IMG/VR virus record: IMGVR_UViG_3300048913_000302
Location: 62,001-116,380 of that record
DNA from: an uncultured virus (IMG/VR IMGVR_UViG_3300048913_000302)
Taxonomy: Duplodnaviria; Heunggongvirae; Uroviricota; Caudoviricetes
Reading direction: 5' to 3' (one strand)
Length of the DNA: 54,380 nucleotides
Translations under genes and position numbers: made by a program
The notes under the pieces: generated by a model
The model's input: only the letters and a program-made list of their open reading frames with translations
What the model was told of the DNA's origin: nothing
Database searches by the model: none
In this document: positions 42,171 to 44,970 of the stretch, in pieces
How positions within the stretch are numbered: position 1 is the first letter of the stretch
How the letters are laid out: every line of letters begins with the position of its first letter

Positions 42171-42509
42171 ATGTCGGAAATCGTACATCGTCTGAGCAAT
42201 CACGATACCAGCACCATCGGTAAGTTCGAAGCAGCGCTGCGCAAGGAGTTCGATCTGCGCGTTGTGTTTCGACTCGATCATCACAAAGAGCACGTCACCA
42301 ACGACGCTAACCTGCGTGACATCTGCAATGCATTGAGCGACGTCAAGCTCAATAAGTCTTCCCAGGTCCGTCAGCTGTTGGCTGCGAAGATGGTGTACAT
42401 GAAACATCCGCGTGGTTACTCCGTCGCCGGACGTTGTCCGAAGGACATGTTCGCTCATCCTGAGCGTTCACAAGTGGTCGTGGTCAACATGCCACGGCGA
42501 GCAAAATAA
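42171..42509 (+). CDS. Basic hypothetical protein, similar to the previous gene
   Basis: AAGGAG RBS; IGKFEAALRKEFDLRVVFRL versus VGDLETAFHREYGIRMVIRL. Confidence 0.75.
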   Translation: MSEIVHRLSNHDTSTIGKFEAALRKEFDLRVVFRLDHHKEHVTNDANLRDICNALSDVKLNKSSQVRQLLAAKMVYMKHPRGYSVAGRCPKDMFAHPERSQVVVVNMPRRAK

Positions 42510-42552
42510 GATTCTCCTGTAAAAAGTTACAGAGCAGGTAGTATCTTATGTT

Positions 42553-42728
42553 CGAGAACTGCCTAACGTCCTACTTGCTCGTGGCTGCGTTCGGTTGTTC
42601 TCGTCTTCCGGAAACGCGCTGCTGCCATTTGGGCTGCTTGGCCGCGGGTCCGGACGTTGCCGGCGAGGCGCTGCAAGGTCTAACCTAAGCGTTCCGCCTG
42701 CCGGCGAGATGTGAGTTCTGGCCATCTC
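42553..42728 (+). ncRNA. Four consecutive hairpins leading the tRNA/ncRNA cluster
   Basis: Closing stems CGAGAAC/GTTCTCG, TCCGGA/TCCGGA, GCCGGC/GCCGGC and GAGATG/CATCTC, just after TATG at 42547-42550. Confidence 0.45.
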
Positions 42729-42755
42729 TCACGAGAATCTAAAGATGTCCAAATC

Positions 42756-42832
42756 GCTGCGTTAGCTCAGCTGGTTAGAGCACTAGCCTGTCACGCTAGG
42801 GGTCAGGGGTTCGAGTCCCCTACGCGGCGCCA
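42756..42832 (+). tRNA. tRNA-Asp (GUC)
   Basis: Full cloverleaf: acceptor GCTGCGT/ACGCGGC, anticodon arm CTAGC-CTGTCAC-GCTAG, TTCGAGT T-loop, encoded CCA. Confidence 0.97.
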
Positions 42833-42839
42833 CTTTCAT

Positions 42840-42915
42840 TCCACGATAGCTCAGTCGGTAGAGCAGCGCACTGTTAATGCGCGGGTCCCTGGTTCGAGTC
42901 CAGGTCGTGGAGCCA
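42840..42915 (+). tRNA. tRNA-Asn (GUU)
   Basis: Full cloverleaf: acceptor TCCACGA/TCGTGGA, anticodon arm GCGCA-CTGTTAA-TGCGC, encoded CCA. Confidence 0.97.
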
Positions 42916-43000
42916 TTTCTTTAGATCCGAGCGTCACCTACCCTAGGCGCACCGCCCTCTCGGATCTTCATAGCTACAAAGTAAAATTCGTCGTTATCTT

Positions 43001-43229
43001 GGTCTATCAGGATAGCTCCGGAGGCAAAGCGCCGTACCCTGCTGGGCAAGTGACTGGAAGAATAGACTCAACCTATCACCGCAGCCAAATAAGCCTGAAG
43101 CGTATGAAGGCTCCTTGATTACTGGGGACGTCAGTGATGTTTCAAGCGTAAGTCCTCCAACGGGTTTCAGTGCCGGCAGTTGGAGGCAGCCTTATTCCTT
43201 TGGTACGGCAGTCTACGGACTGCCTGACC
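43001..43229 (+). ncRNA. Multi-stem structured RNA of unknown family
   Basis: Stems GCCGTACC/GGTACGGC, CCTCCAAC/GTTGGAGG, ATTACTG/CAGTGAT, AGCCT/AGGCT and GGCAGTC-TACG-GACTGCC. Confidence 0.55.
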
Positions 43230-43250
43230 TTATGCTCTTGTAAGATTTAC

Positions 43251-43363
43251 GTCTAGGGGAGAGGTTCGAAACCTCTCGGTGATGGCCACGGGGTGGCACG
43301 TGCCGTACAGCGGTACGTCACTTAAGTTTCAGGCATATGGGTTCGACTCCCACCCTAGGCTCC
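43251..43363 (+). ncRNA. Double-T-arm tRNA-like RNA, copy A
   Basis: Acceptor-like GTCTAGG/CCTAGGC plus TCC; T-arms AGAGG-TTCGAAA-CCTCT and TGGG-TTCGACT-CCCA. Confidence 0.7.
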
Positions 43364-43681: not shown

Positions 43682-43759
43682 GTCTGAAGCACCGCTGATC
43701 TGGGTACTGGGTCAGACACGACGGTCACCGGGACTAGTCCGGTACAGCCAGCGATTTCC

Positions 43760-43906
43760 CAGCGTGTAGCTCAACATTTAGAGCAACGGAAACGAAGCGT
43801 AAGTCGCAGGTTCAAGTCCTGCCCTCCCGTGGTACTGGGAGGTAGTGGAGAGAAACCACGTACGCGGGTGACGTAGGGTCTCGGTGAAAATCCGGGGGCG
43901 CTGACC
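43760..43906 (+). ncRNA. Nested double tRNA-like RNA (outer tRNA body plus inner permuted tRNA)
   Basis: Two D-arms, two T-arms, one open and one loop-closed acceptor stem; see findings. Confidence 0.75.
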
Positions 43907-43919
43907 TATCAAGTATATC

Positions 43920-43948
43920 GCCCGGCCTAGCGCCGGGCTTTATGCCGT
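43920..43948 (+). terminator. Hairpin with TTTATGCCGT tail closing the RNA cluster
   Basis: GCCCGGC-CTAGC-GCCGGGC-TTTATGCCGT. Confidence 0.8.
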
Positions 43949-43998: not shown

Positions 43999-44970
43999 AT
44001 GAAACAGAATCCCCTCAAAGTTGTATTGGGTACCAGCCGTCGCGACATGGTTAACGAACTCATCGACATCCTGAAGATTCCTCAGGGCAGTGAGGTTCGC
44101 AGCATGAGCTGGGAAGGCAGTAACATCCATCCGCAAGTGGTGCGTGAATGCATTGAGACCGACCTGCGTGATGAAGACCTTCTCAATCAGGGTTTCAGTC
44201 AGGGCGCTGATATCATCGCCGTGATGAACGCCAGCGGGTATCGTGTGGTTCGTGATAATCGTCCGGATCATTCGGCAGGTGCGTTCGTTCACTTCTCGAA
44301 GAACATGATCGTGATCCACCCCGTCGGCGCTGACGTGTCCGAGCACACCAAGGATGCCATCACGGTCCGTACTGAAAGTTACTACCCAAATACTACCAAA
44401 GGTTTCTCGGTGTCTGGTGTGGTGTACGATCAGGAGAACCTGGATCTGCGTTACCCTCGTTCCATTCGGATCGTCAATCTGCTCGAAGGTGAAAACCCTG
44501 CGGCTTCTGCCATCGTCCACACGGTCAATGAGCAAGTGCTGGCAACGTACATCAGCCTCGGTGCCATCGGTCTGTCTCTGGGCGCTGTGGACGTGGCTGT
44601 AGACCAGCACGAACTGATGACTCGCGATGACAGTGAGTATGGCTTCGTCATGACAGAGCTGGCTCACGTCCTTCTGTGGGGCCTGTTGGAGCAACAGCCT
44701 ACGTCTATCATTGACGAACTGCTGACGTTCCTTCAGCGCTCTCTGCGCTTCGTTGATCCGGCCTTGTTCGATGCTGAGTTCGAACAGCGTTGGGTATTAC
44801 AAGAAGAAGCCTGCACTCAGTTCGGCGATGGTGCCTGGAGCTTCATGGTCAACACCCTGGTCAGCCGTAACCTCATGGCGTATGAGGAACGCAACTACCT
44901 GTTGACTGGTACCGGCATCCACTTCTACTACCTGCTCCAGATCGCCATGGTGCAGCACCACCTGGAGTAA
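43999..44970 (+). CDS. Hypothetical protein
   Basis: GGAG RBS, 323 aa. Confidence 0.75.
   Translation: MKQNPLKVVLGTSRRDMVNELIDILKIPQGSEVRSMSWEGSNIHPQVVRECIETDLRDEDLLNQGFSQGADIIAVMNASGYRVVRDNRPDHSAGAFVHFSKNMIVIHPVGADVSEHTKDAITVRTESYYPNTTKGFSVSGVVYDQENLDLRYPRSIRIVNLLEGENPAASAIVHTVNEQVLATYISLGAIGLSLGAVDVAVDQHELMTRDDSEYGFVMTELAHVLLWGLLEQQPTSIIDELLTFLQRSLRFVDPALFDAEFEQRWVLQEEACTQFGDGAWSFMVNTLVSRNLMAYEERNYLLTGTGIHFYYLLQIAMVQHHLE

Follow-up and report, generated by a model that had tools for sequence, protein, structure and literature searches.

We identified, in a block of phage tRNA genes, a 147-nt RNA built as a tRNA in which a circularly permuted second tRNA body replaces the anticodon loop, and we regard it as a real and new form of known tRNA mimics. 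On sequence comparison, its pairing is nested, its anticodon is lost, and it is gained and lost as a unit. The element lies at 43760-43906 of the window, that is, of the whole 54,380-nt stretch of DNA analyzed here, which is part of a 116-kb virus contig. Judged from protein sequence, the source is a phiKZ-like jumbo phage, because the contig encodes a tail sheath with the phiKZ gp29PR domain and 29-35% identity to those of the 40 best phage matches listed (the top one being Pseudomonas phage pPa_SNUABM_DT01); a complete 243-kb relative is near-identical to the window's phage. The element closes a non-coding tRNA block between a gene ending at 42509 and a gene starting at 43999. Beyond tRNA-Asp and tRNA-Asn, this block holds seven T-arm motifs, the last two of which are the nested element's own. 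No sigma-70 promoter was found in our scan, and 9 of the 11 flanking proteins lack a Pfam family. The features, all on the given (+) strand, are as follows.

42756..42915 (+): canonical tRNA-Asp(GTC) and tRNA-Asn(GTT), at the head of the non-coding block
43760..43906 (+): whole unit, a two-headed tRNA-like RNA and 147-nt presence/absence module (from the fold, covariance model R1 and the X5 contig)
43760..43766 (+): outer acceptor, 5' strand, pairing with 43897-43903 (pair probability 0.82-0.98 for six pairs)
43767..43784 (+): U8-A9 and outer D arm, its loop with A15 (43774) and without G
43786..43796 (+): outer anticodon-stem 5' strand (43786-88, pairing with 43872-74; probability ~0.55) and purine-rich linker 1
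43797..43805 (+): inner anticodon-type strand (43797-801, pairing with 43861-65; probability 0.59-0.68) and inner variable loop, its last base being C48 (43805)
43806..43822 (+): inner T arm, canonical at U54-U55-C56 and A58 (partial matches to Rfam YrlA and tRNA)
43823..43842 (+): inner acceptor stem of 7 bp (7/7 pairs), capped by a 6-nt loop (43830-35)
43843..43859 (+): inner U8-A9 and D arm, its loop with G15 (43850) and without U
43861..43879 (+): inner anticodon-type strand, linker 2, outer anticodon-stem 3' strand, and outer variable loop, its last base being U48 (43879)
43880..43896 (+): outer T arm, retaining U54 and A58 but non-canonical at G55-A56 (43886-87)
43897..43907 (+): outer acceptor, 3' strand, discriminator A (43904), then C-C-U
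43915..43943 (+): GC-rich hairpin 3' of the element (inverted repeat I23; the scan made no terminator call here), where the block's transcript may end

All of the helices that an earlier note on this DNA had named for the nested fold could be located, including an outer acceptor with six of seven pairs and one G.G, exactly as that note had it. Both D arms pair 4/4 and both T arms 5/5, and the capped inner acceptor (7/7), the inner anticodon-type helix (5/5), and the outer anticodon helix (3/3) are likewise fully paired. The CCA-ended species that the note envisaged is not what the DNA encodes, the end being discriminator A followed by C-C-U, which the host may repair to CCA. The minimum-energy fold of 43760-43906 is the nested one (-53.1 kcal/mol); fold energy by itself is weak support for the design, with a z-score of -1.78 and 11 of 200 shuffles folding equally well. 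Both acceptors were present in at least 98% of 2000 sampled structures, and the two nested anticodon helices formed jointly in 56%; the local hairpins appeared in 3% and 10%. A descriptor of the nested design, written after the element was seen, had a single match on the two strands of the 116-kb contig and none in 2.2 Mb of first-order Markov sequence. Neither ARAGORN nor Rfam called the element as a tRNA, and it has no 7-nt anticodon loop on a 5-bp stem. Relaxing the ARAGORN threshold with introns allowed returned 303 calls, which we discarded as noise, and a k-turn in the linker loop, judged by eye, was unsupported.

The loops of the window copy carry a second signature of the nested wiring, one that is independent of homolog selection. 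The first (outer) D loop has A15, is U-rich and lacks G; U48 is the final base of the last variable loop, and G55-A56 stands in the last T loop. The second (inner) D loop has G15 and lacks U, with C48 in the first variable loop and C56 in the first T loop. The matching contacts would be A15-U48, with the U-rich D loop facing G55-A56, in the outer body, and G15-C48, with G facing C56, in the inner one. Hence, as read from sequence, the Levitt and 19-56 contacts can be satisfied only if the first D arm joins the last T arm and the second D arm joins the first T arm, because the letters of the D, variable, and T loops match only in this way; the loop changes are thereby matched across ~100 nt. 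Loop positions are given in tRNA numbering, and which U or G is placed at position 19 is our own assignment rather than a measurement.

Comparison among homologs argues for the same wiring. In ten hand-parsed copies (a count that omits L152A, L170, L159B, and L095A, which have an irregular junction or are near-duplicates), 224 of 227 positions in the four long-range helices were paired, specifically 67/70 in the outer acceptor, 47/47 in the outer anticodon stem, 43/43 in the inner one, and 67/67 in the capped acceptor; read as two tandem tRNAs, the acceptors of the same copies pair at 64/140. The compensatory changes that the earlier note had proposed to seek with a covariance model were found: in a model-fitted alignment of seven sequences, 96.6% of 291 cells are paired, two-sided changes occur in 31 of 42 pairs, none of 500 shuffles reached the nested pairing, and RNAalifold returned the identical 42 pairs. 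On the same alignment, the tandem wiring pairs in 30.3% of cells, a level that 311 of 500 shuffles equalled or exceeded, and the case of two decayed tRNAs, which the note had set against its own proposal, fails on this result. These figures carry the caveats that the alignment leans to the model, that several homologs were picked for pairing, that some are close kin, and that our search patterns required a canonical inner T-loop. In four close orthologs aligned with MAFFT only, which misaligns the divergent copies, 168 of 168 cells pair and 8 pairs have changed on both sides, the inner anticodon helix being invariant and uninformative in this set. Homolog covariation thus supports the back-to-back elbows, the missing anticodon, and the YrlA-like inner topology that had been proposed.

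The design is not confined to the window. It is present, unannotated, in cultured Xanthomonas phage RTH11 and Burkholderia phage FLC9, and through architecture patterns and a motif from the block we reached further contigs on which tRNA-framed RNAs form arrays, with two nested types per contig. The earlier note's statement that no such module was known within a tRNA stands for the literature searched, where no description of a tRNA nested in a tRNA was found (most subscription journals, the older T4 and T5 papers, and the phage YrlA lists in the PMC4201824 supplement lay outside this search), and falls as regards other phages, where the design recurs. Covariance model R1, built from four close orthologs of one nested type with the window copy excluded, aligned 43760-43909 end to end at 46.1 bits with filters off, missed the window copy at default filters, and found copies in G002 (a complete phage with a tail tube 72% identical), RTH11, and FLC9; it scores tandem tRNAs at up to 86 bits, so that score alone cannot identify members. 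BLAST of the block without its tRNAs against 50,697 phage records produced nothing but short matches to tRNA arms, as did homolog queries, one of which matched at full length only RTH11 itself, and single-protein locus searches recovered only the near-identical contig. Pattern scans returned mostly ordinary tandem tRNAs, with nested copies in at least 2 of the 121 loci listed (L036 and L095), in 4 of 24 loci (all repeats of known sequences), and in at least 1 of the 118 loci listed; a further scan yielded 2 new nested copies in 55 loci, with no new ones in 21 metagenome loci and none in 11 GTDB loci.

Across the copies, the D and T arms are conserved, and caps, linkers, and acceptor sequences are variable. 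The linkers of the ten copies measure 0-9 nt, conserve neither length nor sequence, and share no common anticodon loop or splice junction. Acceptor sequences and discriminators vary so widely that no amino-acid identity is kept in the family. The encoded outer ends are CCU in six copies, CCA in three, and ACA in one, a distribution partly set by the search patterns, and the CCA and ACA ends weaken the idea of a special role for CCU, which we set aside. Other tRNA frames in the clusters carry different inserts at the anticodon position.

Several further RNAs were encountered in these searches. What we call one-and-a-half-headed RNAs (L292 1344-1490 in RTH11, L270 ~2818-2945 in G002, L229 106-234, and L323 in FLC9) combine a tRNA frame, a T arm, and a capped acceptor, with a GG-containing strand replacing the D stem. 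YrlA-like permuted modules in other frames (32-40 bits) occur in two 160-kb phages, at L137 490-555, directly 3' of a permuted tmRNA, and at L145 457-595. Four Bacteroidota genomes (L448, L449, L452, and L454) contain chains of permuted modules (T arm, capped stem, D arm, twice) that finish in an anticodon-like hairpin. Ralstonia phage FLC1-1B (L004 4281-4394, unannotated) and Pseudomonas phage D6 (L005 4498-4578, annotated tRNA-OTHER) hold tRNA bodies with a hairpin insert or an enlarged anticodon loop. A nested copy at L204 1199-1341 lies in a 330-kb contig whose tRNA genes mostly lack an encoded CCA and look eukaryote-like by eye, beside an ORF that we take to be GIY-YIG-like; if this contig belongs to a giant virus, the nested design extends beyond phages.

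The rest of the window's block is also rich in tRNA-like structure. At 43074-43290, a 217-nt fold, closed by an acceptor-like helix beside a T arm (43260) and ending in G-CCA, is a candidate for a much larger tRNA-framed RNA, as modeled; a 19-nt motif within it (43093-43111) recurs 5' of nested RNAs in L152, L153, and L159. Between 43291 and 43757 are four T-arm motifs (43337, 43479, 43580, and 43655) and more tRNA-like frames, and 43606-43679 matches tRNA-Sec weakly (22.4 bits against a cut-off of 47) and lacks an anticodon arm. The 237-nt leader 5' of tRNA-Asp (42509-42745) folds strongly (-100.7 kcal/mol) and holds 14 of the 34 strain differences to the near-identical L001, and its first hairpin and a downstream motif resemble, by eye, the start of the G002 tRNA block. 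In tRNA-Asn (42866-42883), six positions in or beside the anticodon stem differ from L001, with the anticodon loop the same, which may be an allele swap under nuclease pressure.

Assembled contigs from four public runs, compared with the block, reveal the element as an optional unit with borders at the predicted RNA ends. This reading of the sequences follows from two contigs that omit the element and one that spans it: the 14.8-kb X5 contig joins 43757 to 43905, leaving out 147 bases that, given two ambiguous letters, equal 43760-43906; the X8 contig leaves out 43753-43916 and has 8 other letters in their place; and the X6 contig covers 43400-44050 with the element included. Among 24 runs, none with the block was listed as RNA; in X12, a run that we guessed to be RNA, a 177-nt contig lies on 42937-43110, and no listed piece spans the element. 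These observations are evidence neither way. Two other assemblies with the element, identical to each other across the block, were counted once. The element itself shows zero differences to L001, which is not significant (P ~0.10). Distribution among relatives is patchy, with copies in 2 of 14 cultured jumbo phages and in 1 of the 5 near-complete tail-tube relatives searched, counts in which blanks are not absences, as R1 misses degenerate copies. Such a patchy, optional distribution is expected of conflict genes; a neutral cassette could also be lost this precisely.

Among known RNAs, YrlA and the tRNA-like stable RNAs of phage T5 come closest. The element resembles the effector module of YrlA (RF02553), sharing the order of inner T arm, loop-closed acceptor, and D arm, the lack of an anticodon loop, and a Levitt pair; it differs in that beyond its anticodon-side stem lies a whole second tRNA body whose acceptor is open, whereas in YrlA this stem leads to the Ro60-binding stem. 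The element is not a Y RNA, because tests of the Ro60 stem, the Ro60 gene, and the score all fail. Specifically, Rfam YrlA positions 1-22 and 86-114 (the Ro60-binding terminal stem) are unmatched and the element's termini instead form a tRNA acceptor; TROVE/Ro60 (PF05731) was detected in none of five genomes, including the complete, near-identical G017, with the control positive in 2 of 14; and the partial match at 43798-43864 reaches 22.5 bits, and that of one homolog 37.7, against a gathering score of 69. A model given in bioRxiv 10.1101/312249 derives YrlA from a dimeric tRNA, its T arm coming from the first tRNA and its D arm from the second, with outer halves that pair as a stem. In the element, the outer halves make a second tRNA body, and by this analogy it looks like a domain-swapped tRNA dimer of the precursor type proposed for YrlA. 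Further, the 7-bp capped stem of Mycobacterium smegmatis YrlA is cut by RNase P and gains CCA (PMC4201824), and a corresponding RNase P site is predicted in the element between 43835 and 43836.

In T5, RNA1 and RNA2 are annotated as 'tRNA-like stable RNA with unknown functions' (GenBank AY543070), and T4 has rnaC/rnaD (AF158101); like the element, these stable RNAs lie in phage tRNA clusters. When folded, RNA1 and RNA2 take the form of a tRNA frame whose anticodon domain is enlarged, a feature the element shares, and RNA2 has a T-loop hairpin within that domain; compared by folding alone, none of the T5 or T4 RNAs has a full capped acceptor plus a second D arm. Permuted pre-tRNAs, whose processing in algae and archaea is summarized in bioRxiv 10.1101/312249, resemble the element in their closed acceptor loop and in that the ends of the permuted unit pair as the anticodon stem. 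They differ in being spliced into decoding tRNAs, whereas the element's permuted unit sits inside another tRNA and has no conserved anticodon or splice motif. The tRNA-like domain of tmRNA pairs a tRNA acceptor and T arm with a large domain that replaces the anticodon arm. The element shares this layout and differs in lacking alanine identity and a tag reading frame and in having full D stems, and ARAGORN and Rfam called no tmRNA in the window.

Judged from sequence, the element probably binds tRNA-handling proteins rather than reading codons. We favor, at somewhat less than even credence, a bivalent RNA that serves as ligand or decoy to proteins recognizing the elbow or acceptor of tRNAs. In this scheme, the element would be an accessory phage non-coding RNA gene acting through tRNA mimicry at two ends, having arisen from a tandem tRNA pair whose halves swapped partners. 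Going by tRNA biology, it would be co-transcribed with the tRNA block and released, like its neighbors, by host RNase P and 3' trimming, as two L-shaped bodies joined via their anticodon stems on a flexible internal loop. Its two elbows and one open acceptor end would be offered to a host protein that reads tRNA shape, with a tRNA-targeting defense or toxin enzyme, a stress sensor, or a dimeric tRNA-binding enzyme as candidate targets; this protein would be bound with avidity or soaked up, by an RNA that has no anticodon loop to cut and does no decoding. The sister RNAs with a T arm and capped acceptor and no D stem also point to an elbow- or acceptor-directed ligand. The anticodon-nuclease decoy suggested previously, a weaker version of the mimic idea, appears to fit less well, because the anticodon loop is gone and the linkers vary, while elbow and acceptor are kept. 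No partner gene linkage emerged across the five genomes searched for TROVE/Ro60, CCA-adding enzyme (0 of 5), and RtcB or RNA ligase (1 of 5, FLC9 only).

Two alternatives would keep the RNA functional and change what it does. That RNase P opens the 7-bp capped acceptor, with CCA added at both ends and the swapped helices holding two tRNA-sized strands together, is rather unlikely as the mature form; it is compatible with the bivalent ligand and would shift the action from the elbows to 3' ends that, chargeable or deliberately uncharged, engage synthetases, EF-Tu, or CCA-reading toxins. The processing of M. smegmatis YrlA is a precedent, and the inner acceptor is complete (7/7) in 8 of 10 copies; the G002 stem of 6 bp, the interrupted stem of RTH11, the mixed outer ends, and acceptors and discriminators too variable for amino-acid identity all speak against it. 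A scaffold or tether, in which the outer tRNA is a processing and stability frame and the permuted body one of several exchangeable cargos, linking a protein of the phage or host to an enzyme of RNA decay or repair in the manner of Y RNAs, is also unlikely. It would account for the clusters' tRNA frames with other inserts at the anticodon position, as in T5 RNA1 and RNA2, and for an outer T-loop that is the degenerate one in the window copy, L170, and L204, a bias to which our search patterns contribute; against it, Ro60 is absent from all five genomes and the outer elbow of the window copy has changed in a compensated way.

The remaining alternatives question the integrity of the window copy or of the RNA itself. 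A functional family with a window copy decaying toward loss is quite improbable: this copy has the lowest model score of the seven aligned (46 bits against 64-203), is missed at default filters, and has a G.G in the acceptor, a 3-bp outer stem, local hairpins that are near-isoenergetic (-49.2 against -50.3 to -52.8 kcal/mol), and deletions in two related strains (X5 and X8), but all eight of its helices still form and its long-range loop matches persist. That the element is a tandem of tRNA genes in decay, or a precursor from which ordinary tRNAs are spliced, is largely refuted and very improbable. An Rfam tRNA match to the core at 43766-43823 (28.7 bits, just below the cut-off of 29) and the processing of permuted pre-tRNAs elsewhere are what this explanation can draw on; it is opposed by tandem pairing at the level of shuffles, by tandem acceptors that pair only 4/7 and 3/7 in the window copy, by the irregular linkers with no shared anticodon loop, and by the absence of RNA ligases from four of five genomes.

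In its broadest form, which we consider doubtful as a whole, the bivalent mimic would belong to a modular family of tRNA-framed RNAs carried by jumbo phages, its two-headed member being a tRNA dimer with swapped domains in one covalent chain, and thus the proposed YrlA precursor in living form. Host RNase P may open this member into a two-strand, two-ended tRNA mimic, and through bivalent shape mimicry it would act as an RNA counter-defense that neutralizes a tRNA-directed immune or stress protein. Regardless, the family is an architecture defined by covariation, with natural variants (two heads, one and a half, other cargos, and gene-free strains), that standard annotation misses or would read as broken tRNAs. 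It illustrates, from nature, the dimeric-tRNA route to Y RNAs and supplies a naturally occurring bivalent RNA scaffold. With the tRNA-like stable RNAs of T5 still annotated as of unknown function, the unannotated copies in two cultured phages make a role for tRNA mimics in phages testable.
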